DNA of 64,000 nucleotides from a virus (Duplodnaviria > Caudoviricetes), in IMG/VR virus record IMGVR_UViG_3300021963_003887, positions 15,170-79,169 of that record, one strand, 5' to 3'. Every line of letters starts with the position of its first letter. Position 1 is the stretch's first letter. The notes under the pieces are model-generated. The model had not been told where the DNA came from. It ran no database searches and worked only from the letters and a program-made list of their open reading frames with translations. Positions 1,803 through 58,709 of this stretch are shown in pieces. The position numbers were made by a program, and so were the translations under genes.

Positions 1803-4289
1803 TTAGGTCATAGCTAACAGTTTAGAACGTTCTAATCCAACATCTTGTTTTGCTACATCAATCATGCGATTAATATTACTATTTAAACGTTTTACTACAT
1901 CTCTCATCGAGATCTGAGCACTTGTATTGATCACATTTTGAAGTTGTCCTGGTGATACTACTGCTTCTTTTCCGTGAAGTGTGGCCATTGTACCGCGTTT
2001 AAAGTTTCCAAACAATCCTCCAAGGGTTCCAAGAGTACCAGTATTCATACCCATATAAGTTGAAGGATATTCTTTACGTAATCTTTCTACTTCATCGGCA
2101 TACTCTTTTCTCTCCATGATCTTTTGAATTTTAGGGAGATTTCTATCTTTTGTTTGGGCAAACATCTTAGCATCAAACATTACTCGTCTTAAAGGATTTA
2201 GATTAGTACCTATTCCACGTATGTTCTTGTTTAAAAGATTAGCCACTGCTTCTCTCTGTAACAGTGTTAATCCTCCAAATTGATCGCTATCATCAATTAT
2301 TGAAGCACCCGCCTGTGCTTTACGTTCTCGAAGTGCTAGAATTGCTGCGGTAAGAGCAGCATTTGTAACTTCACTGCCGCTACCTCCTTCATAAACGCTT
2401 CCGTAAGATCTAAAACGTCCATCTGAGCCTCTTAATAAATCTCTAATATAATATGTTTTACCATCTATAACAACTTTTTCATCTTCCGGATTCACCGGCA
2501 TCCTTCTTTCTTCTTTAGGCAAAAATATCTGTCTTCCACTTTCTTTGGCAAAGCCAAGTTTAGCTTCAGCTGCTGCTGCCATCCGATCAAGGTCTGGGCC
2601 GATTCCTATTTTTGCCAGCCACTTTGCTGCACCTTCAACATTAAATGTTGAATATATTGCTTTTCGCATGTACATATGAAAATATATAATAGCCGCTTCA
2701 AACATGCCTTCAAATATATTTTTCATGTATACAAGCGTGTCATCATCTGTGAGATTTGCAAAAAAGTTTTTTACATATGGTAAAGCATCATTAGCTAATT
2801 GTATTAGATATTTGTTAAACGCTCTCAGTTGATCGGGCACCATAGCTATTTTAAATTCTTTAGCCAGATCTTTCATAACGGGAAAGAATCCTTTTAATAA
2901 CGCCCGATAGACACGATATACCGATCTTTGAAATTTTCTTAGAGTGTCTGTAAACGCATCTGTTTTACCTTGTTCTTTTTTAGCGGCTTCAACCATCTTA
3001 ACAAATTGACTTTGCATGTTTTTGCTTAGACCGCCTTGTTTAATCATAAATTCCATTGCTGGTGTGAGAGCCTTAACTAGTTTTTTAGAACTTTCATTTC
3101 CCGACACCGAACCTTTTATTATGCCTTCTAATTCTCTCATAGCTTCTTTAGAATTAGCTAATTGACTACCTATGGTATTATTAACATAATCTTCAAATAC
3201 TTTAGGACTAACACTAGTATCTTTAGCCATTTTAATAATAGTGTCCATAGACCTTTCAAAACTTGGCCCTAACGCATACTGTAATGCTATTACAGTATCA
3301 TTGATAGACTGAACACCCAATTCTCTAGATTTAAATAGTTCTGCTCCCTGAGCACCAAACACCATAGAAAAACTCTGTAAAGCTGTTTCCATCCTAGCCT
3401 GCTGAGCAGGCAGTAATTTTCCAACTTTTAGTTTATATGATATATCTTGATTAGCTGCTGCTGCGGCTTCTTGACGCTGCTCCTTGCCCATACCTGTTAT
3501 TTTTTGAAAAGCATCAATTTGACTAGCATATTGTAAAAATTCGTTGCTGGTGCTGTTAAGATTTTTTTCTGTTACAGCTTTTCCTCTTCTAGTTGCGGCA
3601 TAGAATTCTAATAGTAAATCATTTTGTTGATATGTGTTATATCCCCATCGGTCTAATATATCCGATACTTTATCAGAATCCATAAACATAGCAGCAGATA
3701 ATTTTCGTAGATTATCTATACCGGTAGTCATCGTACCTCCGCCTAAAGATACCAACGTTTCTGCGTTACTTCCAACCAACGACACAAGCTCGTCAGTAGA
3801 CAATCCCATATCTAAAGCAGTTTCTTTAAATTTAAAAATACTATAATTAAATGTTGCTCCGTGCTTGTTTGCTTCTCGCAGCCCGTCGTTCCAAGATTCT
3901 AAAGCCACTATAGTTTCTGTTACAATGCCGGCAAGATCACCCAAGGTGTCTCCTACTACTGGAAGTTTTTTAATTAAATCATCTTGTATAAATTTTCCGT
4001 AAGCACTGAGTTTATCTTCACCCCTAGCTATCATAGAGATAAAATTCTTACCAGCACTGACTGTATTTGATAGTCCGGCAGTTAATGTAGTAAACCCTTT
4101 TTTTAGTAATTTAAGTGATGTGCCAGCAGCACCTGCTTCGTCAGCTACGTCATCATCGCCTCCTCTGTTGTTGTTAGAGTTGTCTTTATAATATCTAACA
4201 ATTTCTTGAAGCGTGGCTTCAGACGCAGCATTGTTGATTACGCCGCTACCTAATTTTGAACTAAAGTATTCTACAGTATTTTTGGCCAT
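1803..4289 (-). CDS. tape-measure-like protein (paralog 2, no peptidase domain)
   Basis: 828 aa, A/L/K/S-rich helical composition; C-terminal LHGKEAVVSP motif typical of phage tape measures; paralogous to 4289..6874. Confidence 0.7.
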   Translation of the reverse strand: MAKNTVEYFSSKLGSGVINNAASEATLQEIVRYYKDNSNNNRGGDDDVADEAGAAGTSLKLLKKGFTTLTAGLSNTVSAGKNFISMIARGEDKLSAYGKFIQDDLIKKLPVVGDTLGDLAGIVTETIVALESWNDGLREANKHGATFNYSIFKFKETALDMGLSTDELVSLVGSNAETLVSLGGGTMTTGIDNLRKLSAAMFMDSDKVSDILDRWGYNTYQQNDLLLEFYAATRRGKAVTEKNLNSTSNEFLQYASQIDAFQKITGMGKEQRQEAAAAANQDISYKLKVGKLLPAQQARMETALQSFSMVFGAQGAELFKSRELGVQSINDTVIALQYALGPSFERSMDTIIKMAKDTSVSPKVFEDYVNNTIGSQLANSKEAMRELEGIIKGSVSGNESSKKLVKALTPAMEFMIKQGGLSKNMQSQFVKMVEAAKKEQGKTDAFTDTLRKFQRSVYRVYRALLKGFFPVMKDLAKEFKIAMVPDQLRAFNKYLIQLANDALPYVKNFFANLTDDDTLVYMKNIFEGMFEAAIIYFHMYMRKAIYSTFNVEGAAKWLAKIGIGPDLDRMAAAAEAKLGFAKESGRQIFLPKEERRMPVNPEDEKVVIDGKTYYIRDLLRGSDGRFRSYGSVYEGGSGSEVTNAALTAAILALRERKAQAGASIIDDSDQFGGLTLLQREAVANLLNKNIRGIGTNLNPLRRVMFDAKMFAQTKDRNLPKIQKIMERKEYADEVERLRKEYPSTYMGMNTGTLGTLGGLFGNFKRGTMATLHGKEAVVSPGQLQNVINTSAQISMRDVVKRLNSNINRMIDVAKQDVGLERSKLLAMT

Positions 4290-6912: not shown

Positions 6913-6920
6913 TATAAATA
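6913..6920 (+). promoter_or_regulatory. T4-type late promoter TATAAATA for the 6952 gene
   Basis: exact T4 late consensus in a 77-bp divergent intergenic gap; a gp55-like sigma is encoded in the window. Confidence 0.7.
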
Positions 6921-6932
6921 TCTTGCTACGTT

Positions 6933-6940
6933 TATTTATA
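6933..6940 (-). promoter_or_regulatory. T4-type late promoter TATAAATA for the tape-measure/portal operon
   Basis: TATTTATA on plus strand equals the exact consensus on minus, upstream of the 6874 start. Confidence 0.7.
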
Positions 6941-7845: not shown

Positions 7846-8054
7846 GTATCCCCGAGGTATTAGCCGAGTCGAAAGCCCTTGATGAACAGGCAAAGCAGAT
7901 CAAACTAGAAGCTATGCGTTCAGTTTGGTATATGCGTGGCGGATTGTCGTTTGCCGAAGCCATGAACCTCAGTTGGGACGAAAGAGAGTTAGTCCTTGAG
8001 ATTGTCAAGGACAACATGGATATTACTAAGAGTTCTGGACTACCGTTCTTTTAA
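7824..8054 (+). CDS. -1 frame extension of the gp26-like gene (gp51/gpT-like), not in the ORF track
   Basis: -1 frame is open 7797-8054: RQRLSTLSIPEVLAESKALDEQAKQIKLEAMRSVWYMRGGLSFAEAMNLSWDERELVLEIVKDNMDITKSSGLPFF; slippery T TTT TTC at 7818-7824; first in-frame ATG only at 7914. Confidence 0.7.
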   Translation, partial: RQRLSTLSIPEVLAESKALDEQAKQIKLEAMRSVWYMRGGLSFAEAMNLSWDERELVLEIVKDNMDITKSSGLPFF

Positions 8055-9103
8055 CCAGCACGTACAGCTTTTAATAACTGAAGTGCCTTAGCAGTCTGAG
8101 CAGGATCCATCTTAACCAATTCTCCAAAAGCATTAGACATCACATTCATTTGCTCTCTAGTTAATGGATTCCCAGCCATATAGCTAGTAACCGATTTTCT
8201 TAATTGATTAGCATCAATACCTGGAAGTAATTCTGATAGTTTACCGTAGTTAAGACTGCCCTTGGTTTTAGTTGGCTCCTCGCCACCAGACATGCCCTGT
8301 TTAACTCCGCGAATGAATGATGATCCTATACCGCTGCTACCATCATCATCACCGGCATCGCCGCCTGCTTTACTAATATCTTGGGCCGAAGCACCTTGAC
8401 CACCGATAACCGCATCAAGTTGTTGTCCCATTTTGGCTTTAAGGATATCAGTAACTGCTGCTTTGATAATACTATCTACAGTTGAATTCTTAAGTTCTAC
8501 TTCGTCAATGATTGTTTCACTAACTGGGTTATATCGTAATCCCGCTAATTGAGCGATGCGTGACAATTCACCAATTCCCTCAGCTGGTTTTTTCTTTTTT
8601 TCTTTAGGAGGAACTTCACTTGCTGCCGGTGCCTCTGGTTCAGCTGGAGTTTCTGGAGCAGCAGAATCAGCCGGTGCCTCAGGACTGCCAGGCTCAGCTG
8701 GAGTTTCTGGGGCAGCGTCGCTGTCCGGACCAGGAGGTACCTCTATAGTACCAGTGGGCTCAATTTTATCCGCTCCAAGTTCTTTGGCAATATCTCCGGT
8801 TGCTGCCCCACCTGACGCCATAGCTGCTTGTTTTAATGCTGCTTCAGCTCCTGCAGTAGGAAAACCATTTGATTTTAAAAAGGCAATTAACGCATCTGAA
8901 TTAGGCTTTTGATCTGTTTGACCTAGATAAAAGTCAAATTGTTTTCTAAGACCGTTGGCGTATTTGGCCATGTCAAGAGCACCTTTAGCAGTACTACTTC
9001 CAAACTTAGAAGCAATACCTAGACCAGCCCTTTTTAACATACCTACAGGTGCTTCAGATACCTGTTGTTGTTGTTTTTGAGATAATATATCAGTGATTTT
9101 CAT
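8051..9103 (-). CDS. hypothetical late protein, possibly internal head protein; Pro/Ala/Glu-rich linker
   Basis: 350 aa; TATAAATA box and AGGA upstream; MKITDIL..SEAP N-terminus; ELSRIAQLAGL motif. Confidence 0.6.
   Translation of the reverse strand: MKITDILSQKQQQQVSEAPVGMLKRAGLGIASKFGSSTAKGALDMAKYANGLRKQFDFYLGQTDQKPNSDALIAFLKSNGFPTAGAEAALKQAAMASGGAATGDIAKELGADKIEPTGTIEVPPGPDSDAAPETPAEPGSPEAPADSAAPETPAEPEAPAASEVPPKEKKKKPAEGIGELSRIAQLAGLRYNPVSETIIDEVELKNSTVDSIIKAAVTDILKAKMGQQLDAVIGGQGASAQDISKAGGDAGDDDGSSGIGSSFIRGVKQGMSGGEEPTKTKGSLNYGKLSELLPGIDANQLRKSVTSYMAGNPLTREQMNVMSNAFGELVKMDPAQTAKALQLLKAVRAG
8626..8725. repeat. imperfect intragenic tandem duplication (~54-nt period) encoding AAPETPAEP twice
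   Basis: TCAGCTGGAGTTTCTGG occurs at ~8640 and ~8694; CCGGTGCCTC at 8626 and 8671. Confidence 0.75.
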
Positions 9104-9131
9104 TTAAAAGTGTCCTAAGAACTTATAGAGT

Positions 9132-9139
9132 TATTTATA
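9132..9139 (-). promoter_or_regulatory. T4-type late promoter TATAAATA
   Basis: exact consensus ~30 nt upstream of the 9103 start. Confidence 0.7.
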
Positions 9140-9144
9140 TGTTT

Positions 9145-9610
9145 AGGAGTGAGCGATGCTCACTCGTGTCTATCGCTAACGCTCAGACACATTTTTTTTA
9201 GAGTTAACTGCGAAGCAGTTTTAACTATTATCCAGATTGTTTCAGTCAGACGGAACCTATCTACATGGTTCCGTCTTTGCTTGGGCATTATCCGAGTTGC
9301 AACAGCCAAGACATTGGAAGTAGGTGTTTTTACCGTATGCTAATGGGCTCTGACCTTTCCCAACCTACGTCGACTCGCTTAATTTTAAGCGTCTTAGACC
9401 TCGTTCCTAGTGTCTAAGTTTTTATAGCACGGTTTTTCGTATGCTAACAATCATACTATAGCAATGCGTCGGGCATATGGTTCGAACCCTCTGACTCACT
9501 TCCGATTTTTCAGGATACTGGAATTCCTCCAGGGGAGTGCCTTACTATGTTTCGTGTGCCGTTTCTTACGCGGCCCTTTCACAGCGGTATTACAAACTGG
9601 CCCGCCAACC
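9145..9610 (-). ncRNA. candidate large structured non-coding RNA (~470 nt)
   Basis: only long intergenic gap in the window; GC-richer than flanks; many stems (9248-9276 10-bp perfect, 9376-9391, 9393-9418, 9425-9446, 9320-9368, 9147-9165, 9206-9220); G-U pairs and A-rich loops favour the minus strand. Confidence 0.6.
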
Positions 9611-9871
9611 TTAAGTGTTAGATGAAATGTAGCCTTTTGGTAACCAAGTAATAAATTTGCCTCCGCAACTATTACAGATTACTTTGCCTGCGTGTGGACC
9701 TGTCGGTTTATTGATGATTTCCCAATGATGATCTTTGTGAACGCCTAAATGATCTTGTAGTTTTGCCCGCTGACTATGCCATTTTTGATCAAAACCTTGC
9801 TTTGGATTACGATAATAATCTGAATTTAACACACTATTAACGGGGTTTCTATTCCAGTTTAGCTTGGTCAT
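9611..9871 (-). CDS. small hypothetical protein with putative zinc ribbon
   Basis: 86 aa; GPHAGKVICNSCGGKFITWLPK (H..CxxC). Confidence 0.6.
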   Translation of the reverse strand: MTKLNWNRNPVNSVLNSDYYRNPKQGFDQKWHSQRAKLQDHLGVHKDHHWEIINKPTGPHAGKVICNSCGGKFITWLPKGYISSNT

Positions 9872-9887
9872 TATTAAAAAATGGTTC

Positions 9888-10322
9888 TTATTTTGCCTTT
9901 TTATGTTCTTCTAGACGCTGTCTAAGTATGTTTGATCCGCCAACTCTGACGTTTATAATGCCATTATAATAGTCATCTGTTTCTAAAACTCTGCGTTCAA
10001 ACTGCTCTCTAGCCTCTAGATATGACATTTCTGCCTTGGATTTACAGTAGTAAAGTATTTCTCTAGTGAAGTTTTCCGGACCTAATGCTTGGACGTCTGC
10101 GTTGAGCCTATCAGAAGAACCAAAGTAGTCACGCCAATCGCTTTCTACTACTGATCTTCTTTTAAGTTTTTTGCCTTTAAGGGGTGGTTTAGTACGTTTG
10201 AATTGAGCTAATTTCTTGCCTATGTACTTCTGTCCGGTTTTGAGATTCGTGATGAGATAAACAAAGCCAATATAGCCTTCGGGAATTTCTTCTACGGGTT
10301 GATTTTGGTATGTCCACAGCAC
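9888..10322 (-). CDS. GIY-YIG family nuclease (Seg-like, stand-alone catalytic domain)
   Basis: GFVYLITNLKTGQKYIGKK, YFGSS, F.REIL, conserved E and YN. Confidence 0.8.
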   Translation of the reverse strand: MLWTYQNQPVEEIPEGYIGFVYLITNLKTGQKYIGKKLAQFKRTKPPLKGKKLKRRSVVESDWRDYFGSSDRLNADVQALGPENFTREILYYCKSKAEMSYLEAREQFERRVLETDDYYNGIINVRVGGSNILRQRLEEHKKAK

Positions 10323-14292: not shown

Positions 14293-15312
14293 ATGCCATT
14301 ACCATTAAACACGGAAACTACTATCGGCGGAGTAGCGGTCGTTGTGAAGTCAGTTCCGGAGAAGTCATCGGGGCCAAATAGAGGCGGCCGTAGCGATACT
14401 CCCCAGAATGCTGCCGATCAGGCGGTAAGTGCTTATGCCGCCCCGGGCGGTAGTAATAGTTATAACAATAGGCCTAAGGGATTCAACATTCCTGATTTTA
14501 GCGGATTAGATAAGGCTTTAGGAATCCTAGGAACGGCAGCTGCTCTAATATCATCTGGAAAATCTGCGTATGAAAATGTTAAAGATCTAAAGTTTGATTT
14601 CGGTGCCTTATCGTATAACCGATTAACAACTACCTCTGTACCAACCCTAAACCTGTGGTCTTCTGCGGTTGATCTCGGTGAAAGAAATACAACTAGACGC
14701 AGTGTTCTCGGCGACTCTCGTATACGGTTGAATACTGATTTTACTGTTTTTAACGGCAATTCAGGAAATCCATACTTTAAACGGTTAATAGAAACCGGAG
14801 GTTTACTATTTCCCTATACCCCAAATATTTCTCTAACATACAAAGCTAATTATACAGGCACTGAAGGAATAGTTCATTCAAATTTTCCTTTTCAAGCATA
14901 TAAAAATAGTCAGATCGAAGATATAACTATACAAGGTGAATTTACAGTACAAAATGCTGCCGAAGGGCAATACTGGTTAGCAGCAAATCATTTCCTGCGT
15001 TCCGCTACTAAAATGTTTTATGGTAAATCAGTCCCTGCCGGATTTCCGCCAGTGGTGTGTACGTTAACTGGCTACGGGCCAGAAATGTTGCCTTCTCTGC
15101 CAGTGGTAGTTAAATCTTTTCAGGTAGACCTTAAAGATAACGTGCAGTATCTAACAGTTCCGTCATTGGTACAGGCTGGAGCAGGCGGAAACAACAGTGT
15201 TCCAATGCACAGTACTATAACAGTTATTCTTAGCCCTATGTACAATAGAGAACAAACACGAAGAGAATTTAATCTTGCTGATTACTCAGCAGGCAGATTA
15301 ACAGGATTTTAA
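14293..15312 (+). CDS. baseplate/tail-tube initiator protein (gp48/gp54-like)
   Basis: FPYTPNIS..Y.ANY, ITIQGEFT, PPVVCTL.GYG, PVVVKSF; position before the gp53-like gene. Confidence 0.55.
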   Translation: MPLPLNTETTIGGVAVVVKSVPEKSSGPNRGGRSDTPQNAADQAVSAYAAPGGSNSYNNRPKGFNIPDFSGLDKALGILGTAAALISSGKSAYENVKDLKFDFGALSYNRLTTTSVPTLNLWSSAVDLGERNTTRRSVLGDSRIRLNTDFTVFNGNSGNPYFKRLIETGGLLFPYTPNISLTYKANYTGTEGIVHSNFPFQAYKNSQIEDITIQGEFTVQNAAEGQYWLAANHFLRSATKMFYGKSVPAGFPPVVCTLTGYGPEMLPSLPVVVKSFQVDLKDNVQYLTVPSLVQAGAGGNNSVPMHSTITVILSPMYNREQTRREFNLADYSAGRLTGF

Positions 15313-23100: not shown

Positions 23101-23631
23101 TTATGGCTCACTGGCGGATTATCAACTAAACCCGCAGAGCCTACTTCCGAAAGTTTAAGCATACAATTTGGATCTACACTTGGACCAATTAAATCTATCA
23201 GCGATGAAATAGTTTATCATCCTGTAAAATATTTTCCTTTATTTGGGGACAAGGCAAGCCCAGAATTTCAGGCAATTTTTAAAGTTGTAAAAAATCCTAA
23301 CAGAGTTATAAATGATAACGACCTCAAAGTAAGAATAATTAATAGTATCAATGAATTTTTTGATGTAGGCAATTGGGATTTTGGCGATAGATTTTTTGCT
23401 AGCGAATTAATCACTTATATTGTTTCTAACAATTCTCCTAATATTAGTAATATTGCGTTAGTGCCTAAGCAGGAAAATCAAGCGTATGGAAGTTTGTCAG
23501 AAATAAGAGCCCAGCCAGATGAAATTCTAGTAAGTGCTGCTACAGTAGATAGTATTGAAATATTGTATAATATTACAGCTACAGAATTAAATCTTTTGAA
23601 TAGTCAGGTTGTAACTAGGACAGCAAAATAA
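20119..23631 (+). CDS. gp6: baseplate wedge protein gp6-like
   Basis: DFENLR..MI.Y...NYPEDFNDF.ESSE..ALID, ESVLRLARMLSY, F.DG..GK.P, ETIDSIR.KAP..YYTQNRMITGEDY. Confidence 0.85.
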   Translation: MTTTTRQNNLILAEDWTRIYQTFRNADFQSYDFENLRRVMINYIKENYPEDFNDFIESSEYVALIDLIAFLGQSLAFRIDLNSRENFIELADRKESVLRLARMLSYNARRNKSASGLLKFESVSTTEGLVDSNGTNLSNQIIVWNDPANSNWYEQFISILNAAMIPNVEFGKEQSNKIIDGIRTEQYRLNSFSTGLPIFSFSKSVAGRSMGFELVSTGLAESRDFIFEEAPVPSRQVGFIYRQDGKGTASNNTGFFMMFKQGTLESADFSISRPTPNEIVSITTQNINNDDVWLYSIDGSSNITNVWTEVSSVAGNNIVFNSLSNNQRNVYSVITQANDAVDLQFSDGAYGKLPQGTFRFYYRVSNGQSYVVNPSEMKAITISVPYINKRGTQHSLSITLSLEYTVDNASSSETIDSIRSKAPAVYYTQNRMITGEDYNIAPLSSSQEVIKVKAINRTSSGISRNFDIIDASGKYSKINIFADDGLIYRKDEERYYSFKYTNSATVLNFIRNIVQPALSSFQTYNFYLTNFDKIFTADVNVKWIKSTTEENASTGYFGNVFDSFPIKIGSYTSSNLKYIELGSLIKFIPPSADKAFYNGEIVNYDPSNANHKKFIWTKVVKLIGDGTNAGKGNLSSGKGPITYSENIPTGSLPSQVVSKFVTTLPTDIENEILNLTFSSETFGLRYDVLDGMWKVISSTNIDLENDFNLGQAGNTSNEAVDTSWIVAFVYDGDEYRVRVRGTEYIFSSILQNRFYFDRGEKVYDSRARTVIKDQVKVLAINTSPLSSVLSNTEIANAIVNLRQVNPLFSVSEVLAIVDRQQTLKDDISFEIADSVRFQDGYKSSDSVKISFYDSDNDGVIDNPDSFDEIVGSNINNKYVFFQQVQDENGFDIFNYIPNVNNKFIIIDKEVNANVNDYEHNQLIYFYDRAENLIKKVDLITRSFVLEPSYVGYIGRDNLKFQYIHNASENRRIDPSVSNIIDIYLLTRSYDDNYRLWLTGGLSTKPAEPTSESLSIQFGSTLGPIKSISDEIVYHPVKYFPLFGDKASPEFQAIFKVVKNPNRVINDNDLKVRIINSINEFFDVGNWDFGDRFFASELITYIVSNNSPNISNIALVPKQENQAYGSLSEIRAQPDEILVSAATVDSIEILYNITATELNLLNSQVVTRTAK

Positions 23632-26600
23632 TGTCAAATAAAATTTTCAAAAAAAGTGAACTACCAGTAAGAAGAACCGTTGATCTACTTCCTGATGCTT
23701 TTAAAACAAGTACCAATGATAAGTTTCTTTCAACTACGCTAGATGCGTTAGTCCAACCCGGTACTTTAGAAAGATTGTCGGGATTTGTTGGTCGTCGTTA
23801 TGGAAAAACATTTAATTCTCAAGACATTTATGTTGATGTAGAAAAATCTTTAAGATCATCTTATCAACTAGAACCTGCGGTAGTAATAGAAAGCGGTCAG
23901 AAAGTAAAGAAAGTATATGACTATGTTGATTTAAAAAATCAATTAAAATTTTTTAATAACTTATCTGAAAGAGACGATTTAGCAACTTATCAAGAACAAT
24001 ATAGTTGGAACCCCCCTATCGATTGGGACAAGTTTATAAACTATAGAGAATATTATTGGTTGCCAGTCGGGCCAGAAACAGTCTCAGTAGCCGGTCAAGC
24101 AGAAAATGTTATATCTAGTTATCGTGTACGTTCAGACGGCCAGAACGAATGGTTGTTCTATCCAGACGGATTAAAAAGAAATCCTCAACTTACTCTTTAC
24201 AGAGGCCAAACATATATTTTTGATGTTAATAGTCCCGGTGATCCGTTTGTTATTAGATCCGGAAATCTTAAAGGTAATCAAGAAAATTATAATAAAGGTG
24301 TAACTAATAACGGAATTGAAGTTGGTACTATAACATTCGAAGTTCCGTTAGATGCTCCAGAATTATTATATTATCAAAGCGAAAATAATATTAATCGTAT
24401 TGGCAGTTTTGTAATTGCGTCTGTTTTAGAAAATTCTTTTATAGACGTTGAAAAAGAAATTCTTGGTAAGGTAAATTACACAAGTTCTAATAATATAAAA
24501 TTTACCAATGGATTAAAAGTACAATTCGTAGGTAAAGTACAGCCTGCTATCTACAATGATAGTTTATGGCTAGTAGAAGGAGTTGGCGAATCTATTAAAT
24601 TAGTAAATTTTGCCGAATTAGAAATTCCTCCTATTATATCCAATGAGATAGAAATTACTTTTGATGATGGCGGATTCGATACTTTGCCTTTCGACGATGC
24701 TTCGTCATACCCTACACAAAAAGATTATATTACTATTAATAGAAGTAGTAAAGATAAAAATCCGTGGACACGTTATAATAGATGGTTCCACAGAGATGTT
24801 ATAGAATATGCTGCTAATATAAACGGAGTACCGCCGTCGTTAACAGAAACTGGCAGAGCCAAGCGTCCTATAATAGAATTCCTTCCAAATATTCAATTGT
24901 TTAATCATGGGTCAACGCCTAAGAAAACAGTTGATTTGGTAGACGATTTTACTAAAGATGTATTTTCAACTATAGAAGGATCTGCCGGTTATAATATTGA
25001 CGGGCAATCAGTTGAGGATGGCGATAGAATTTTATTTTTAAATGACGCTGATCCATTTGTTAAGAATAAAATTTTTGAAGTAAAGATTATAACTGTTCAA
25101 ACTAGTACAAACACTATTAATAGAACCCAAATTAGTTTAGTTGAAACCAACGATACTGATCCTATTATAGGTGAAGCTATAATCATATCTAAGGGTAGTG
25201 TGCCAAACAAAGGTAGGATGTATCATTATGATGGCGAACAGTGGGTACGTAGCCAAACAAAAAATTCTATAAATCAATTCCCGTTATTTGATTTGTTTGA
25301 TGACGAGGGAGTTTCGTTTTCCGATAATCAAAAATACGAAACATCAACTTTTGCTGGAAGTGAACTTATTAGCTATAAAATAGGAAAAGGACCGGTAGAT
25401 AAAGAATTAGGGTTCTCGTTGTCCTATTTGAATATTAATAATTCTGGAGATATTTTATTTGAAGTTGATTTCGAAAAAGATTCATTTCTATATCAACAGT
25501 CTGGACAGACCATTAATAAATTATCAGCGTCCGGTTTTTTTAAAAATCATCAAACTGAAGAATTTTTCAACGGGTGGATTAAAACTAATCCTAATTTAAG
25601 ACAACCTATCCTTGAAACTTTTGTTATAGAAAGTGATACAAGTTCATTAACATCATCGGCGTGTATTTGGTCAAACAATGCTACAGAGCATATATTATTT
25701 TATATTAATGGTAAAAAAATTAACGCAAGTTTTACCAGCACAGTTGTAGCAAATACAAGAACTTTTGTTTTTAATCAAACTTTAAAAGCAGGAGAAACTG
25801 TAACCTTAAAAATTTTTACGACTGACGAGCCAAATCTAGGTTATTATGAAATTCCTAATTCTTTAGAAAAAAATCCCCTAAATGAAAACCTAGAACAATT
25901 TACTCTAGGTCAGGCCAATGATCACTTAAAAACTATGATTGAAGTAGACACCGGATTCCAAGGAGAATTTCCGGGAGCTAGTAATATCAGAGATATAGTG
26001 AATTATAGACAGAACGGTTCTAGATTTATGAAACGAGCTAGTTTAGGAGTATTGGCATTTCCATTATTATGTGATAAAGATATTAATCTAATAAAGTCTA
26101 TTAGACACGCAGCCAACGAATACGAAAAGTTTAAAAATAATTTTATTACTCTAGCTAGCGAATTAGATTTTGATCAACGTAGTATTGTGGAATTTGTAGA
26201 TAAAATTTTAGATAAGATGTCTAAATCTAATGTTATTGATTTTCCTTTTGCTACATCGGACATGATCGGTAGTGGTGCTTATAAAGTAATTAATTATACT
26301 GTTGAAGATGAAGGCATTACAACTTTTGCTTTAAATGAAAAATTTGATTTAGATACAAATTCATCTCGTGCTGTCTACGTGTATGTTAACGATATCCAAT
26401 TGTTACATGGGTTTGATTATGTATTTGATTCTACCTTTGGATTTGTAAAATTATTAGTAAATCTAAACGAAAATGACAGAATTGAGATTAGAGAATATCT
26501 AACAACGGCTTACAATTTTATTCCAGAAACACCTACTAAATTAGGGTTGTACAAAAAATTTACTCCTAGAATTTATCTTGATGACACTCTGGTAGAACCT

Positions 26601-29600
26601 ACAGAAGTAATACAAGGGCACGACGGCAGTATTACGATTGCTTTTGGTGATTTAAGAGATGATATTATATTGGAATTAGAAAAGAGAATCTATAATAATC
26701 TTAAAATAAAATATGATACAGAAATTTTTGATGTTGATAGATTTTTTAAAGGATATCACGGTCAAGCAATATATGATGTATCTACAATAGACGATGTTAT
26801 AGAGACAGATTTTTTAAAATGGTCTAATAATTTAGGAATTGACATTTATAAAAATGAAGTTTATCAGTCCGAAAATCCTTTTACATACACATATTTTAGA
26901 GCCACTGATAGAAACAAAAAACTTAAACTTCCTCAATATTGGAGAGGCATATACAAATTTTTATACGATACTGATAGACCTCATACATGCCCCTGGGAGA
27001 TGTTAGGGTTTAGCGAAAAGCCCTTATGGTGGGAAGAAGAATATGGTCCTGCTCCTTATACCAAAGGTAACCTATTATTATGGGAAGATTTAGAACAGGG
27101 AATTATAAGACAAGGTCCAACTACGGGAGCAAACCCTAGATATGCTAAGCCGGGTTTATTAGATTACATTCCTGTAGATGATCATGGAAATTTATTATCA
27201 CCGCAAGACGCTTCTGCGATTATAGATTATTCATTGAATAAAATAAATGAAGATTTTCAATTTGGAGATTACGGACCAGTTGAAAATTCTTGGAGAAGAA
27301 GTTCGCTGTACCCGTTTTCTATAATTACAGCCGCGTGTCTCCTAACTCCTTTTGAATTTATATCTACAAATTTTAATAGGAACAAAATTGTAAAAAACAA
27401 ATTAGATCAATTAATTGACAAAGATACTGGAACATTTATCGATAAGCAAACCTTAACGTCTAGTGTAGACAGTGACCCATCGGGTTTGTTTACTTACATT
27501 CAAAATTATCTAAAATTTAATGCTATAGATATTTCGCTATTGTCAAATACAATAAGCAATTTAGACGTAAGAATATCTCATAAGATAGGCGGATTTGTTG
27601 AAAAAGCAAGACAACGATACATTTTAGATAGTAAGAGTCCGACATCTAAATCTCCAGCAGTCTTTATACCGCCAGAAGATTTTCAAATTATTTTTAATAC
27701 TGGTTCTGTAGCAAAATCTATCAGCTATTCTGGGTTAGTAATAGAAAAAGTTGACGGCGGTTTTAAATTGTTTGGCTACGATAAATTAAATTCGTACTTC
27801 AGTGTATATGAACCGTACACTAGGGTTGACGATCCGATTATATCTGTGGGCGGTATAAGCGAAAAATATGTAGATTGGGATGCTGAAAAATTTTATGGCA
27901 AAGGCTCCTTGGTACGGTATCAAGGATTATACTATCGTTGTACAGCAAATCATGTTTCTGCTAATAGTTTTCAAAATGAAAATTTTACAGTATTGCCAGC
28001 ATTACCGATAGTTAATGATGTTACAGCAATAAAAAGGACCACCTTTAATAAATTTTTAGTAAAGCGTATTCCATATAATGCCTTTTTCTCTACAATACAA
28101 CAAGTAGTTGATGTAATATTAGGTTACAGCGAATGGTTAATAGATCAAGGAATTGTCTTTGATGATTTCAATAAAGAATTACTAGTTCCTAACGACTGGA
28201 TGTTGTCAGTTCAAGAATTTATGTTCTGGACTTCTCATAACTGGGCTGTGGGTGCGTTAATAACTTTAAGTCCGGCTGCAACATTATTAAAAATTGTCAA
28301 TGCCGGTAGTGTAGCAGATAATATTTTAGATAATTTTTACGAATATAATATTTTTAAAAATGACGGAACTAAAATACCTGCCTCTGATATCCAAGTTTAC
28401 AGAGGATATAATGAATTTATTTTAACTCCGTTAGATACACAGGCTACCGGAATATATTTTGCTAAAATTAATTTTGTACAAAAAGAACATGTGGCAATCT
28501 TCAACGATAGAACTATGTTTGGAGATGTTATATTTGATAAAGGTCCGGGATACAGACAAGATAGAATGAAATTAGTAGGATTTAGGACTACTGATTGGGA
28601 CGGAGACTACACCAGCCCGGGCTTTATATACGATTCTGCTGACATTACTCCGTGGCAGGCATTTACAGATTACAAATTAGGAGACATTGTTCAATATAGA
28701 GAATATTATTATGTCTCTAAAGTTTCTCAATCTGGATCTAACGATTTCAATTTTAACGATTGGGAAAGATTAGATTCGATTCCTACACCTAGTTTAGTTG
28801 CTAATATTGATTATAAGATTAATCAAATTGAAGATTATTATGAATTAGGTTATCAAGGAATTGATGATACTGAAAAAGAATTAGCTAGACATTCTATTGG
28901 ATATCAAAAACGTGGATATCTAGACGAATTAGCTCAGGACGAAGTTACGCAGTTTAGAATTTATCAAGGATTTATTAGGGAAAAGGGAACAAAAAATTCT
29001 ATTACTAAAATTTTTGATAAGCTAAGTTCTTTAGATCAAGATGCTATTGAAATGAATGAAGAGTGGGCATTCTTAATGGGAACATTCGGGGGCTCATCTC
29101 AATTTAAAGAATTGGAATTATTATTAAATCAAAAGGATATAAGATTAAATCCTCAGCCTGTTATCATCGATAGTAGAGGGTTATCAAAATCAAATTATCA
29201 AAATTATATTTTAATAGGATCTAATGATTTTACTATCGGTGGTCCAGAATATATTTTTCCAACAAAATCTTATCCTGTGACCGAATCATCGGCAGGTTAT
29301 GTATATTCTGGCGATGTAGATTTTGTAGTAAAAACTAGAACTAACTTATATGCTTTAGATATAACTGAATTAAAAGACGGTTCTAAGGTGTGGGTGACTT
29401 TTGATAGTCCGGGCTGGTCTGTATTGAGATATACAATTACAGATATTATTATAGGAGCAGTGGCAGTAGTTGATACTACGTCAGTTACTTTAGAATGTAA
29501 TAAACCACACGGATTAAAAGTGGATGATATTATAGGAATTAATAATATCAAATACTTGGAAGGTTTTTGGAGAGTTAAAGCGGTTGATCCTAATACGATA

Positions 29601-32600
29601 ATCATTGAAATAGCCGGCTTTGATGAGGAACCAGTTATTGATCAAAGTTCTTTTGCTACAATATCTATTTTTGAAACCTTACGTGTAGGTCAATACAGCG
29701 ACTTAATTTCTGACAGATTCGCAGCTTATAAAGAAGGAACCAGAGTTTGGTTAGATGACAATGGAGAAGGCAAGTGGGAAGTCTTAGAAAAGAAAAGAAT
29801 TTATAAACCTGTTGATGTAGCCAATTATGGTGTGGCATTCCCTACCGGTTCGGGAAAAGATGTTTTATTTTTAGAAGCAAGAAATCAAATTATTTCGTCA
29901 AATCCTGGTCAGGTAGTGCCTGCTGGAGAAGTGATTAGAGAATCAGCAGTGGTTGTCTACGGCCAGAGCGAGGAAGGATTAATTCCTTTACAGATATTAA
30001 ATCCTAATTCAAATTTAAGATCAATATTTTTAGGATCCTACGGAGAAGTATTAGCGACAAGTAAAGATGGACGATGGCTAATGGTAGGGTCTCCTACTGT
30101 TTCTTATATTCCCAGCAATTATAAAGAAGTCTTTAGTCCTAGTGCAACATACAATCCGGGCGACACTGTGTTATTTGCTGGTAAATTGTACCAAGCACAG
30201 ACTACAGTTGTAGGCGATGGGTCAACAATTAACATAGATAGTCAAGATTGGAAACCGGCCACAGAACATCTTGCTAACCCCTTAGGTATAGGATTGTATG
30301 ATGTTAATCAAGGATATAGACAGCAAGGTGCTTTAGAGATATTTGAGTACGATGAAATTTTTAGCCAATATCAATTAAGGCATACGATAATAAGCCCACG
30401 TCCAGCACACGGAGAAAAATTTTCGTCTACAATTAGTTTATCGAAAAGAGAAGGCATAGAAGGAACCAGCGGAGACGTAACCTTAACAGTGGCTTCTATA
30501 GACAGTGTTGGCGGAATTTTAGAAGTATCTGCCCAAGGAGAAAGCGGATTAGAAGACACTAGATTTTCAAACGTCAGCGGGTCAGATATCAGTTTGCCAG
30601 GTTCTAATGCTACATTTGATGTCCAGAAAACCAATAATACCTATAGTGTTTTAGTAAGAACTGGCGGATCTAGATATGCTATAGGTGACAGAATAAAAAT
30701 TACCGGTAGTAACTTATTAGGTCTTACTCCTTTTAATGATTTAATCATAACTGTAACAGCAGTCACGTCAACAGGGGAAATAGTTGGATCGGCAACCTAC
30801 AATAATATCAAAGGTATTAATTCAATATTGCCTGACGAAGAAGCTACTTTTAGAGTAACTAAATCTGGAAACAGGTACGCGGTTACTCGTACTAGTGCTG
30901 GTAGCGGATATAGCTCAAGAAGTATCGTAAGATACTCTGGCAGATTGTATGCTTGTATCAAAGATACTAGAATAGATCTAGGGGTGTGGAATCCTAGCCG
31001 AACATACCAACCCGGAGATGTAGTCAAATATCCAGCTAACTCTACAGCATATTATACAGCTACTGGACTAAACACTGGGATCGTTCCTACAGATGTTTCC
31101 AAATGGGAAAACACTTTACCAATATTCCCAACTAATCAAGAGTACTGGGAACAGGTGTCTGGTGCTGTGTTTGCCGAAACAGCAGTAGAATGGGCAGATT
31201 TAGATTTGACCGGAAATAAAATTAGATACACAGCGGGGTCTGTCATAGTTATTCCCGGTAGCGAACTCGGCGGCGAAGACGGTGAACATAACATTACCAT
31301 TCGAGTAAATTTAGTTACAACAAATTCTGCTATTGATAATTTTTCTTATAGAGGCACTGCTTCGTCGGGAATTATTTGGTCAGGAACTGCCACTGCCGGA
31401 GAAAGACAATTTAATGATCTACAAGGCGAAGATGTTAGCGATCCGGGCCAGGGGGCTATTTTTGATCTTGTAAGAGAGGATGGTAGATATAATGCTATAG
31501 TTAATGTAGCAGGAACAAGATATAATGTTGGAGACCAAATAAGAATTTTAGGCAGCACGTTAGGTGGTGTTGAAGAAGCTTATTATATGGTAGTAGGTGC
31601 TCCGGGATCTAAAGACGATATGGGTCGTGCCTACCTTTATAAATTTGACGGCGTAAGCTGGAAGCATCTTGACGATCCTAATTTTGTAGGAATATATTCG
31701 TCAACAAAAAATTATCCGTTAGGTTCTAAGGTATGGTATAATTCCGATTATTGGCAAGCATTGTCGAATATACCCGCTGTTCCTAATAACCAACCCGGCA
31801 CCGGCAATTGGGAAAAAATTGCTGAAGTTACTAACAGTATATTTCCTCCTTCGTTGGCCTACGCTGACGATGGATCCACTATACAACAACCAGCCACCGG
31901 CGACATAGAATTTTTGAATATTGGAAGTTCTTACGGAACGTTCTCAGCGTTCAATAAAGACGGTTCTGTAATGATAATATCAGCTCCAGCAAATGACACA
32001 GCCAGCTTTGAAAATTTTAAAGGTGTCTGGAGAAACAATATCAATTACCTAGCAGGTGATACTGTAAGACGTGGCACTTTTTATTATAACTGTCTAGCAG
32101 ATAATATTAATTCTATTCCAGAATTTTCTCCATCTATTTGGCAAGAAAATTCAGATTCTACATTAGGAAAAACTGGTTCGGTTTTTGTATACGAAAAAAC
32201 TTCTAATGAAACATTTATTCTTATTCAAACAATAGATAGCGACGAAGTTGAATTAGAAGCTGGTGATGAGTTTGGTCACAAAGTAGTATTAAATCAAGAA
32301 GGTACCCGATTATTTGTATCTGCTCCTAACTTTGATTATCTAGGCAAGGATCAAGGCAGTGTATTTGTTTTTGACAGAACCGCCTCTGGATTTGTTTTAA
32401 AACAAAAATTAAATGGCCTAATTATGGAACCTGGAGAACGATTTGGGTCTAACGTGTCTGTATCGCCAGACGGCGTAACTTTGGCTATTTCGGCAGAAGG
32501 AGCGGCAAGTTACAAGACCACTATATTTGACAGAGGCAATACTGCGTTTGATAGATTTGTAACTAGATTTAGAGACAGTCAAGGAAAAACCGGTAAAGTC

Positions 32601-35600
32601 TATGTGTATACAAATTACACTGGATCTTTTGTATTGTCAGAAATTTTAGATCAGGGATTAAACACTGATGAAGATTTCGGTAGAGGGCTGTCTGTTTCTA
32701 ATAATTCTATAATAGTAGGTAGTCCGTCGTTCATATCCGAAGATCCTGCGTTCGAAGCTGTTAGGATTGGTAGGCTTCAAAAATTTGATAAAATACCTAA
32801 TTCGAAGCCTTGGTTTACTATTAAACAACAAGATGATCAAGTAAACATTGATTTGCTTAAGAATTTTTCTTTCTACGACAAATTTAATAACGTAAAACTA
32901 GCAGATGTTGATATCTTAGATCCTGCTAAAGGAAAAATCTTATCTCTAGCCGACCAGTATATTGATTTTAAAACATCATTCGATCCAGCGGTATATTCTG
33001 TTGGAACTGAAGAATCCGCTATTGATCCTAAACAATCATGGCAGTTGGATAAAGTTGGCACAATTTGGTGGGATTTATCTGCGGTTAAGTGGGCGTTATA
33101 CGAACAAAACTCTTTATCTTTTAGAAACGGAAACTGGGGCTCTACAGCAGTCGGTAGTAGCGTAGATGTTTATGAATGGGTTGAAAGCCCTTACAGTCCT
33201 AGCGAGTGGAACGCTCTTACTGGAACCACCGAAGGATTTTCGTTAGGCGTAACCGGAACGGCCCGCTATGGCGATGATACAAATTACAGTGTCAAAACTA
33301 ATTTTGATACTATTACAGGATTGCCATCCGGATCAATGTATTACTATTGGGTAAAAAATAAAACTACTGTACCTGAAGATTCAGACAGGGGTCTTAGTGC
33401 TAGTCAAATAGCCAATTACATTTTAGCTCCTTCGTCTGCTGGGATACCTTATGCTTTATTAACATCTAAAAACACATTTAGCTTAGTAAATTTCAACAGT
33501 GTAATAGACGACGATGAATTTTTAGTTAATATACAATTTTATGATCAAGAAAAAGAAATCAATCTAATTCATAATGAGTATCAACTATTAGCTGAAGGTA
33601 CGATACAAGTACCTAATTTAGAATTAGAAAATAAATGGATCGACAGTTTGATAGGTGAGGATATCGCTGGACAAGCTGTTCCGGATAGAAAATTACCAGT
33701 AAAATTAAGATACGGCATTTCTTCTAGACCAAGACAGTCGATGTTTATAAACAGAAATAAAGCAGTTAATTTAATAATTGATTACGTTAACAATATCCTA
33801 AAGAAAAAACCATTTGCTGAGATAATAGACTATGGCAATCTTAATTTACAAGATGAAAAACCTGCTTTAACAAAAAATCTTTATGATCAAGTATTAGAAA
33901 CTGAAAAAGAATTAAGATTTATTGCTACTTCTAAAATTAAAACAGCAAAACTTAAAGCAAACATAGTAAATGGTCACATTAATACCGTGGACATTATTGA
34001 TGGCGGGTACGGATACAAAACGGCTCCCAATATAAAAATTGTTGGCTCAGGGTCAGGTGCAAAATTTAAACCAATCCTAGATAATAGAGGATCTATAACT
34101 TCTGTAGAAGTAATAAATCAAGGAAAAAAATATCTAACTGCTAGCTTAATAGTCAGACCATTTTCTGTTCTCGTTTTACAAGATTCTAGTGTAAACAATT
34201 TTTGGAGCATTTATTCTCTAGATGAAAAAAATAAAGAATTTTATAGAACAGCTACGCAATCTTTTGATACTAAAAACTTTTGGAAAAAGGTTGATTGGTG
34301 GCTAGAACCGTTTAATGAAAAATCTAAAATTAAAAAAACCATTGCCGGTCTTTATGAAGAAGCTAGTGTAGATCTAGCAATTGGTGATTTATTAAGATTA
34401 GAAAATTATGGAATTGGTGGTTGGGCCGTTCTTGAAAGGGTTGATGCTACTGATGCTGATATAAGCGGAAAATATAAATTAGTGGGAAGAAAACTAGGAA
34501 CTATTCAAATTATTAACGGTTTTTATAACACTGATTCTGAGTCTACCGGTTACGATTTAACACAGGCATTTGATAGTAACAAATATGATAGTTCAGCATC
34601 TACAGAATTTAGAAACATTTTAAACGCTGTAAAAGAAGATATTTTCAAAGAAGATTTATCTGTAGAGTGGAATAAACTTTTCTTTGTAAGTTTACGATAT
34701 GTATTTTCAGAACAACTATATGTTGACTGGGCATTTAAAACTAGTTTCTTAAATGCTGTACATAACGTCGGTACTCTCGAACAAAAATTAAATTATAAAA
34801 ATGATAATCTTTCTAGTTACCAATCTTATATTGAAGAAGTAAAACCATACAGGACTAAGATTAGAAATTTTATCAGCAAATATTTTAATCTAGAAACAGC
34901 TAACCAGTTAACTACTGATTTTGATTTACCGCCTGTATGGAACTCAGAAACTTCTTCAGTGGATATTATTGGTAGCAATTCTAACCAACTATCTCAATAC
35001 CCATGGAAGCTTTGGGTTGAAAATAACCATTATTCTGTTATAGATATTAAGATAGTAAGTCCAGGAAAAAATTATTCTTCTGTGCCTCAAATTGTATTTG
35101 ATGGTGGAAACGGAACAGGTGCTCAAGCTCAGGCATATATTTCAAACGGCAAAATTTCTAAAATTGTAGTTACTAATCCAGGTAGTGGTTATGTTTCTGC
35201 TCCTACCGTTATGATTGTAGGCGGCGTAGGCAGTGAAATACAAAATGCTGCTCGTGCTGTAGCTATTATTGGAGATTCAAAAGTTAGAACTTTTGATATG
35301 AAGATGAAGTTTGATAGAATTTCTAAAACTCCTAATTTTAAATCTTACAGTTTCAATGAAAAGTTTATAGAAATAGAAACGTTTAACGCTTCGGCAAAAC
35401 AAACAACTTATAAATTAAAATATCCTTTATCCTTAGATAAATCTACAATCACAGTAACGTTAGACGGATCTAGATTATTGTCTAGTCAATATTCTGTAAC
35501 ACTAACTGAAGAATTAATTAATTCTAAAACAGAACTCATTGGAAGATTAATTCTTAATTCTGCTCCTGACGAGGGAAGTGTGGTTGATATTGAATATCAG

Positions 35601-58483: not shown

Positions 58484-58709
58484 TTTCTTTTTGTCCTTCT
58501 GGTTTTGGTGTTACACTGTCTAAGAACGATGCTAATCTGTTATAAACCTTTCCAACAGATTCCATCTCTGCTGCTTTAAAAGCACCTCGCTGTGTAGCAA
58601 CATCAACAATAGTGCGTAACGCACCTAGGTCATTAATAGTAAGCTCTGGAGCTTTGGTCTCTGGCTGCTGCGGCTGAGCCTGTTCTTGTTTCACTTCTTC
58701 TGTCATCAT
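58476..58709 (-). CDS. hypothetical protein
   Basis: 77 aa; AGGAG SD; RGAFKA.EM..VG..Y. Confidence 0.75.
   Translation of the reverse strand: MMTEEVKQEQAQPQQPETKAPELTINDLGALRTIVDVATQRGAFKAAEMESVGKVYNRLASFLDSVTPKPEGQKENG

Follow-up and report, generated by a model that had tools for sequence, protein, structure and literature searches.

A pseudoknotted non-coding RNA gene of uncultured large phages that alternates at one locus with an extended Polynucleobacter-1 RNA

Results

A structured RNA gene at the end of a string of recombination genes

This study concerns a structured RNA gene in a phage genome (Duplodnaviria; Caudoviricetes) recorded in IMG/VR as IMGVR_UViG_3300021963_003887. The DNA analysed, hereafter the window, was the 64,000-nucleotide (nt) stretch from position 15,170 to 79,169 of this 79-kb virus record; all positions below are those of the window. 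A reading of the letters without database searches (the sequence-only reading) had proposed a large ornate structured RNA in about 500 bp that lacked a credible open reading frame (ORF). The gap was found to be real, extending over 507 nt (9104-9610) between two minus-strand ORFs at 8051-9103 (350 amino acids, aa) and 9611-9871 (86 aa, designated p86); in the RNA stretch itself, 3-11 stop codons were counted per frame in all six frames. The accompanying remark that other gaps were shorter than 80 bp was roughly right, with one departure: among ORFs of at least 80 aa, a second-largest gap of about 220 nt was present at 58484-58705.

The RNA gene, which we call B-type, occupies 9225-9621 on the minus strand, as delimited by nhmmer copies in other phages and by covariation. 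The extent originally proposed (9226-9610) was therefore close, except that the 5′ end reaches slightly further, to 9621, inside the last codons of p86. Upstream, also on the minus strand, lie p86, a 144-aa GIY-YIG protein (9888-10322), a 76-aa ORF and a gp46/SbcC-like protein that is 49.6% identical to gp46 of Pseudomonas phage PA5oct. The RNA thus stands on the gene strand, at the 3′ end of a gp47-gp46-GIY-YIG gene string and at the end of an early-type operon of recombination genes.

Covariation supports a conserved fold on the minus strand

Relatives of the RNA were collected in two ways. Twelve more distant viral loci were fetched via p86, and all 12 carried an ORF-free stretch downstream of it, at 75-78% DNA identity versus 66-72% for the flanking genes. 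Viral contigs were also scanned for an 18-19-nt word of the RNA, which returned at least 119 stretches. When a profile of the first alignment was run over 139 loci, 123 nhmmer matches were obtained; some of these loci were one contig fetched twice. Near-full-length B-type copies were present at no fewer than 113 viral-contig loci and amounted to at least 82 distinct sequences, of which 67 representatives were retained after removal of pairs at ≥97% identity.

Folding energy was better than that of shuffled sequences on both strands (z = -3.16 for the minus strand and -4.59 for the plus strand). From the 67 representatives, RNAalifold predicted 67 pairs, 41 of them with compensatory change. A curated structure of 76 pairs in 16 helices, two of which were written as pseudoknots, was counted on the same representatives. 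Standard pairs were formed in 98.2% of cells, compared with 86.7% in shuffled controls (standard deviation 0.3; reached in none of 500) and 32-42% when the strands were slid against each other. Changes on both sides were seen at 49 of the 76 pairs (shuffled mean 26.1, again reached in none of 500; slid 12-17), and the covariation score was 0.349, against 0.139 for shuffled and 0.04-0.06 for slid controls. The fold is conserved by covariation, and the sequence-only reading is borne out by a 16-helix pseudoknotted fold with an additional pseudoknot at the 5′ end. Thirteen helices (P1, P3, P4, P5, P7, P8, P9, P10, P11, P12, P13, P14 and P15, the last at one pair) showed compensatory change. P6, P2 and the closing helix H0 were almost invariant, and covariation speaks neither for nor against them. 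Of the 76 pairs, 72 form in the window, and three of the four misses reflect a one-column alignment shift in P3. Measured from the 5′ leader CUAACA to GUCUGACU, the core had a median length of 374 nt (range 350-408), and it is followed by the second copy of a direct repeat described below.

Read from its 5′ end, the RNA begins with the strand CUAACA (9616-9621), which overlaps the last codons of p86 and pairs with the loop UGUUAG (9444-9449) of hairpin P8 (GUAUG/CAUAC, 9439-9456). This pseudoknot, PK0, was paired in 100% of cells in all 79 distinct sequences counted; it occurred as eight haplotypes with compensatory change at four of six pairs, and slid controls paired in 18-42% of cells. With PK0 the helices number 17, several of them pseudoknotted. 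P1 (GGCGG/CCGCU, 9583-9606) is a hairpin in which three of five pairs were compensatory (for example GC 55, CG 8 and AU 4), and P3 (GCCG/CGGC, 9558-9574) is a second hairpin with compensatory change at all four pairs, for which the register of the window is off by one column. The long-range helix P4 (AUAGUAAGGC / GCAUUGCUAU, 9458-9548; six of nine pairs compensatory) encloses P5 (9518-9532; five of five), the invariant P6 (UCC/GGA, 9501-9515) and P7 (9471-9489; three of four).

The 3′ domain is closed by P9, a helix between GCUA (9425-9428) and UAGC (9339-9342) in which all four pairs were compensatory. It contains P10 (9393-9418; seven of seven) and the variable stem P11 (9376-9391; four of four), into which insertions of tens of bases were found in a few members. 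It also contains P12 (9369-9371/9352-9354; three of three) and P14 (9359-9362/9344-9347; two of four), which cross each other. P13, formed by GUAGG (9364-9368) and CCUAC (9320-9324), was paired in 100% of cells, with compensatory change at four of five pairs, and crosses P9 and P12. Because P12 with P14 and P13 with P9 cross each other, the 3′ domain is pseudoknotted. Directly after P13 comes an almost invariant UUCC (9316-9319), tentatively the 3′ strand of P2. The terminal hairpin P15 (AGACGGAACC / GGUUCCGUCU, 9248-9276) was 100% paired and nearly invariant, with one compensatory pair, and no U-run follows it. In addition to these helices, highly conserved unpaired stretches are present in the family.

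Most of the stems that had been picked out by eye correspond to consensus helices: UGGCGG/CCGCUG to P1, CTGGA/TCCAG to P5, CTTAGAC/GTCTAAG to P10, CGCTTAA/TTAAGCG to P11, GTAGGT/ACCTAC to P13 and AGACGGAACC/GGTTCCGTCT to P15, the last of which is so nearly invariant that it offers little covariation evidence. The stem TAGCA/TGCTA (9425-9446) did not hold, as GCUA at 9425-9428 covaries instead with UAGC at 9339-9342 in P9 (AU 54, GC 9, CG 3). What had looked like a T-loop, GGTTCGAACC, proved to be the 5′ strand and loop of P7, where most relatives read GGCUAGAAAC or GGGUAGAACC. A 10-nt direct repeat (9334 and 9438) is real and belongs to the family consensus, but the alternative pairing proposed for it, GCUA with UAGC of the P8 loop, showed no covariation and was dropped. 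A further candidate, the P1 loop GCCAG with CUUGGC, was also dropped; only three invariant G-C pairs were formed, and the next position was A-C in 21 of the 67 sequences.

With regard to strand, numerous consensus pairs were G-U (e.g., GU 51, GU 48, UG 62 and GU 56), which would give non-pairs on the plus strand. On account of these pairs and of the flanking minus-strand genes, the minus strand is the RNA strand, as had been claimed. Relative to the window, 536 of 626 insertion or deletion events were not multiples of three. Given the stops in all frames and these indels, the stretch is not coding. Taken together, these data showed that 9225-9621 (minus strand) is a compact, pseudoknotted non-coding RNA gene of approximately 374-400 nt.

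The B-type RNA matches no known RNA family

The whole window gave no match to Rfam 15 at gathering thresholds. When positions 9000-9950 were searched at E ≤ 10, two chance snoRNA-like matches were the only ones returned, and for 12 further B-type loci no match was obtained inside the RNA at E ≤ 5. ARAGORN found no tRNA or tmRNA gene in the window. In the window and the 12 relatives there was no Rfam model match to ROOL, GOLLD, RNase P RNA, 6S RNA, HEARO/omega RNA or the small self-cleaving ribozymes. Group I and group II intron models likewise gave no match, and no split host gene was seen, the flanking ORFs being complete and varying between phages. These results support the earlier suggestion of a divergent or new class and, by every model test available, the B-type RNA behaves as a new family. 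More than 10,000 candidate structured RNAs have been catalogued from IMG/VR (Fremin et al. 2023); the main text of that paper contains neither "GIY-YIG" nor "Polynucleobacter", and the motif may stand in its tables under a serial name.

ROOL and GOLLD, which are often found in phages and prophages, measure roughly 580 and 800 nt, respectively. Like them, the B-type RNA is a large, multi-helix, pseudoknotted phage non-coding RNA with no associated dedicated protein. Unlike them, it is smaller (~374-400 nt), matches no model and stands at the end of a recombination-gene operon. ROOL and GOLLD have been described as homo-oligomeric cages by cryo-electron microscopy (Kretsch et al. 2025, PMC12286853).

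Close relatives carry an extended Polynucleobacter-1 RNA in the same slot

The closest relatives of the window are eight viral contigs that encode the 350-aa protein at 65-97% identity. In all eight, DNA identity reached window position 9888 from one side and 9251 from the other, with flanks that were 80-97% identical, and the intervening 9252-9887 (p86 and most of the ORF-free stretch) was replaced by an ORF-free segment of 339-341 nt. The spacer at 9104-9224 was kept in each of them (85-97% identical). Two of the eight were scanned with Rfam, and in both the 5′ 138 nt of the segment matched the Polynucleobacter-1 family (RF01718) on the gene strand, at 58.1 and 59.6 bits (gathering score 37 bits). 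The same model found no match in window 9000-9950 (E ≤ 10) or in 12 other B-type loci (E ≤ 5). We refer to the Polynucleobacter-1-bearing RNA of the relatives as A-type. In the literature searched, Polynucleobacter-1 appeared in one paper alone, the account of Weinberg et al. 2010 (PMC2864571), where the motif is listed as a probable and probably cis-regulatory RNA of Burkholderiales, from fresh water or estuary.

A 15-nt A-type word led to 120 viral stretches, in which 98 nhmmer matches were found; at 81 loci a profile of about 365 nt was matched as far as its end. The extended RNA was seen at 3513-3880 of locus L002 and at 81 further loci (L140-L259). From a MAFFT alignment and a purpose-made helix counter, 32 distinct full-length A-type sequences were found to share covarying helices beyond the 141-nt Rfam model. 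One of them, 4 bp long and long-range, closes a 3′ domain. Another, the 5-bp GUUGU/AUAAC, has a strand in a loop that would be enclosed by GAGG/CCUC, an invariant pairing read from the consensus; if that pairing forms, GUUGU/AUAAC is likely a pseudoknot. In the two relatives scanned, the 3′ part of the A-type RNA gave non-significant matches to cow-rumen-2 (RF02947; E 0.095 and 4.9). The 141-nt Polynucleobacter-1 motif accounts for just the 5′ portion of this conserved phage RNA, which measures approximately 365 nt.

The layout of the A-type RNA resembles that of the B-type, from a 5′ multi-stem in which a UAUCC-loop-GGA mini-hairpin is found, through a pseudoknotted 3′ domain, to a terminal module. 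In both, this short hairpin lies in a multi-stem closed by a long-range helix, and the 3′ domain is closed by a 4-bp long-range helix and contains an H-type pseudoknot. The two also share their genomic setting: in the window's closest relatives, the A-type RNA takes the same slot directly after the same short GIY-YIG gene, and each type has a repeat-hairpin-repeat end. In contrast, no similarity between the bodies was detectable by sequence or by model, the hairpins are ordered differently with respect to the closing helix, and p86 accompanies the B-type only. RF01718 has three 5′ hairpins followed by a multi-stem with a CC/GG mini-hairpin and a 6-bp hairpin, and the B-type has P1, P3 and a multi-stem P4 that holds P5, P6 (UCC/GGA) and P7; these elements are alike, but one hairpin lies inside rather than outside the closing helix. 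At E ≤ 10, none of the 81 A-type RNAs was matched by the B-type nhmmer profile. Model R1, a covariance model that covers P4-P8 of the B-type core, gave no match inside the A-type RNAs in 84 loci; its single match (E 2.5) lay elsewhere, on the other strand. Homology of the two types thus gained no support from nhmmer or model R1, a result that is not in itself evidence for folds that differ in three dimensions.

How often the two types have exchanged was estimated from a tree of 113 distinct GIY-YIG proteins, of which 66 stood next to A-type and 47 next to B-type RNAs. RNA type changed at least 18 times on this tree, a rough figure given a short protein and a quick tree; when the labels were shuffled, 30-41 changes (mean 36) were counted. 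One protein with an A-type neighbour was 100% identical to the GIY-YIG protein of the window, and further pairs with B-type and A-type neighbours were 96, 94, 93 and 93% identical. Because of these type switches, and because near-identical proteins stand beside unrelated bodies, the GIY-YIG protein is not co-evolving with the RNA body. The B-type RNA is interchangeable in evolution with the extended Polynucleobacter-1 RNA.

Among the stretches listed from bacterial and archaeal genomes for the 18-19-nt word, none of 120 held the B-type RNA, the matches being local ones of 30-57 nt. When 50,697 phage records were searched by blastn with the region and with the A-type segment, no match was obtained. 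In the syntenic regions of PA5oct and Atu_ph07, Rfam gave no match at E ≤ 0.1 and nhmmer recovered neither RNA type. The B-type family is found as a single copy per genome in a clade of uncultured large phages.

Both RNA types end in a module with a co-varying direct repeat

The closing elements stand in one order in A-type and B-type RNAs alike: aCUC followed by a 7-mer, a strong hairpin, (G/C)UGACU, and AAUCU followed by the same 7-mer. In the window the first copy (UC-GGAUAAU, 9287-9295) lies 5′ of P15 and the second (CU-GGAUAAU, 9227-9235) lies 3′ of it. The two 7-mers were identical in 88 of 108 parsed B-type loci, in six variants, and in 39 of 45 parsed A-type loci, in five variants; most non-identical cases look like errors of regular-expression parsing. 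When partners were shuffled among distinct pairs, about one identical pair was left. Both copies in the window read GGAUAAU, as in its A-type sisters, and most B-type RNAs carry ACAUGAA. The repeat was also considered as a genome-wide promoter word and rejected as such, since YYGGATAAT occurred five times in the window against 3.0 expected. A co-varying direct repeat around a terminal hairpin matches no RNA mechanism known to us; our guess is that the two 7-mers may be two sites for one lineage-specific factor.

Neighbouring genes are optional on either side of the RNA

The 144-aa protein encoded at 9888-10322 (minus strand) matched Pfam SegE_GIY-YIG (E 8.6e-37) over residues 3-123 and PHROG family phrog_447, and thus consists of the GIY-YIG domain only. 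Its gene is the usual upstream neighbour of both RNA types: a GIY-YIG gene (138-150 aa) was found on the same strand within 400 nt upstream at 66 of 72 A-type and 70 of 97 B-type loci. At six B-type loci it lay directly downstream of the RNA instead, and 13 of the 67 B-type loci with both flanks had none within 3 kb. Where no ORF intervenes, the RNA begins 20-30 nt after the GIY-YIG stop codon. The protein family was present in 586 phage records, mostly of cyanophages, and in the three records inspected (Melnitz-3, with a homologue 64.7% identical, S-RSM4 and YB07) no such RNA stood beside the homologue. In Synechococcus phage S-RSM4 (L383, 1471-2840), a tRNA cluster (Arg, Leu, Val, Ser) lies one gene downstream of the homologue, at a distance of about 670 nt, a further instance in which this nuclease family is found close to RNA genes.

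Of the 105 B-type loci for which sufficient upstream sequence was available, 53 carried the optional ORF p86 (9611-9871, minus strand). All 52 homologues stood directly before a B-type RNA, and none was found in the 81 A-type loci. The protein is zinc-finger-like, with conserved H45, H48, C66 and C69. No Pfam or PHROG family was matched, ESM Atlas gave only unnamed clusters scoring 0.89, and the AlphaFold model (mean predicted local distance difference test score 63.6) was too weak for a fold search. In some loci the p86 slot held another ORF of 82-87 aa with the motif FGKYYGTP..LP.SYL. Small ORFs in this slot (for example L083:642-887, L112:11684-11932, L080:1569-1817 and L042:928-1188) all end in ..NT-stop because their last codons overlap the conserved 5′ leader of the RNA.

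The first downstream genes of 157 loci were sorted into 34 clusters. Of these loci, 62 belonged to just the four largest clusters on the opposite strand, and the largest cluster of all (41 of 157) was on the same strand, about 127 nt from the RNA. The 350-aa gene followed the RNA in only two of 81 B-type loci. In the window, RNA and 350-aa gene are separated by the spacer at 9104-9224 (minus strand), which is outside the alignment of the RNA family and holds three hairpins and a copy of TATAAATA (9132-9139). We take TATAAATA to be the T4 late-promoter word. It was depleted in the window, with four copies against 12.1 expected, and by word count three of the four stood just before gene starts, at 6913-6920 (+), 6933-6940 (-) and 9132-9139 (-). 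Since the downstream genes vary and are often convergent, and since the presumed late-promoter word intervenes, the RNA is not a leader or 5′ untranslated region of the downstream gene. Also in the spacer, at about 9160-9196, a plus-strand hairpin (GTGTCT...AGACAC) followed by eight T's has the look of an intrinsic terminator that would act on plus-strand transcripts, antisense to the 350-aa gene. Its stem covaries in relatives (GTGTCT/AGACAC, ATTAAC/GTTAAT, GTTGAT/ATCAAC) around a conserved GAGCG..AGCGA loop, and a consensus terminator scan did not list it. Elsewhere in the window, a single ORF of 4890 aa occupies 23631-38303 (+).

Discussion

With a probability of about one half, we read the B-type RNA as the product of a stable trans-acting RNA gene placed at the end of an early operon and flanked by selfish small nuclease-type genes. 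The RNA would be made as the tail of an early or middle transcript and would persist in trans as a stable molecule that is a protein-binding scaffold, self-assembling or catalytic, and its clamped ends (PK0, P2/P13 and P15) would protect it from degradation. The A-type and B-type bodies would be functionally equivalent alleles. The GIY-YIG gene, p86 and the other small ORF may be selfish, homing-type genes for which the RNA gene is a landing pad, and it is these small nuclease-type genes that would drive the repeated allele replacement. A landing pad of this kind would explain the optional ORFs on either side of the RNA, the clean boundaries of the cassette and the recurrent exchange of alleles. 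A comparable arrangement is the tRNA region of T4 with segB, where stable RNA genes stand beside free-standing homing endonucleases. The likeness lies in a conserved RNA gene with optional small nuclease genes, and in close phages that differ by replacement of an adjacent segment. The difference is that the B-type RNA is not a tRNA and that homing by GIY-YIG or p86 is here putative.

Several observations weigh against a stable RNA gene among selfish nuclease genes. It is their position that suggests functional equivalence of the two bodies, which have no detectable similarity to each other. A run search for words of the window returned small shares of the sampled words only, and four RNA-library runs, taken as assembled contigs, held only short diverged pieces, corresponding to 9294-9460, 9580-9623 and the GIY-YIG gene. 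After the RNA there is no intrinsic terminator on its own strand. Seg-type homing enzymes carry a DNA-binding domain, unlike the GIY-YIG protein here, which is the catalytic domain only, and p86 matches no recognisable nuclease family in Pfam, PHROG or ESM Atlas. The co-varying direct repeat is left unexplained by this model. Finally, most members of the family were fetched via an exact 18-19-nt word, the invariance of which is by construction, and more divergent members were missed; the word was also present in all 12 loci that had been fetched via p86.

A more speculative proposal, which we hold to be doubtful, is that the A-type and B-type RNAs are two idiomorphs of one RNA system, each with a body that sets specificity and a 3′ module that is read by a factor, both being kept in the population by conflict during co-infection. 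Each RNA would be catalytic or self-assembling, and the co-varying repeat would be the site of the lineage-specific factor. The conflict could take the form of an incompatibility or exclusion determined by the RNA, or of allele replacement driven by a nuclease. A bolder version would have the shared 3′ module recruit the adjacent domain-only GIY-YIG nuclease.

The adjacency of RNA and nuclease gene can also be read more directly, with the RNA as scaffold or guide partner of the GIY-YIG protein and produced, like the right-element RNAs (reRNAs) of TnpB, from the 3′ end of the mRNA that encodes the nuclease. The usual same-strand position of the gene upstream of both RNA types would fit such a partnership, as would a protein that is essentially a catalytic domain and an RNA that starts 20-30 nt past its stop codon. 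In six B-type loci the gene is downstream, and adjacency therefore survives rearrangement. As in OMEGA/TnpB systems, a structured RNA comes immediately after a nuclease ORF and overlaps an ORF at its end; unlike them, the locus has no TnpB or IscB and no HEARO or omega-RNA match, and the GIY-YIG family is widespread without the RNA, including the three of three records inspected among the 586. Moreover, 13 of 67 B-type loci lack the gene within 3 kb, and the body has switched at least 18 times on the protein tree, leaving identical or 93-96% identical proteins beside unrelated bodies. As the protein is not co-evolving with the body, the one part of the RNA that could serve as its site is the shared 3′ module, and we regard a partnership of this kind as unlikely. 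Equally improbable, in our estimate, is that the RNA acts as a ribozyme or is left over from a self-splicing or mobile, group I-like element, with the neighbouring endonuclease genes as its homing genes. The size, the pseudoknots and the conserved unpaired stretches are typical of catalytic RNAs, the RNA adjoins GIY-YIG and small zinc-finger ORFs as introns do, and the cassette is replaced cleanly between close relatives. However, no group I, group II or self-cleaving model was matched in the window (E ≤ 10) or in the 12 further members (E ≤ 5), and the RNA splits no host gene but lies between complete ORFs that differ from phage to phage.

The remaining explanations fare worse. A riboswitch-like, cis-regulatory leader of the downstream gene follows the class given to Polynucleobacter-1 in its listing by Weinberg et al. 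2010 (PMC2864571), and the largest downstream cluster (41 of 157 loci) does lie on the same strand at about 127 nt. That proposal is hard to reconcile with 34 unrelated downstream clusters, many of them on the opposite strand, with the presumed late-promoter word between RNA and next gene in the window, and with a 350-aa gene that follows the RNA in two of 81 B-type loci; we consider it very unlikely. To an element acting as DNA or as a transcript-primed site, for example a replication origin with a structured primer RNA and repeats that bind protein, we assign a similarly slight chance. A direct repeat that co-varies on both sides of a hairpin typifies protein sites on DNA more than it does RNA helices, the element adjoins recombination and replication genes, and alternative types at one locus recall determinants of incompatibility or immunity. 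Against it, covariation keeps G-U pairs that exist only in a minus-strand RNA, which speaks for an RNA fold over all 374 nt and not at the repeats alone, and no AT-rich unwinding region or iteron array was seen. A decayed gene or a chance-structured spacer, to which the short ORFs of 49-64 aa that overlap the region might point, is refuted: the stretch is more conserved than its flanking genes, 49 of 76 pairs are compensatory, and most indels have a length that three does not divide.

Large RNAs of intricate fold and no known job are seldom met, and earlier ones proved to be ribozymes, riboswitch-like sensors or, lately, RNA-only cages. The B-type RNA is widespread in uncultured large phages, is absent from Rfam and has unusually strong covariation. 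Its locus offers a natural experiment, in that a second, unrelated large RNA alternates with it among near-identical phages. In addition, Polynucleobacter-1, an orphan motif since 2010, may be re-read as the 5′ third of a phage RNA of approximately 365 nt rather than as an element of bacterial 5′ untranslated regions.

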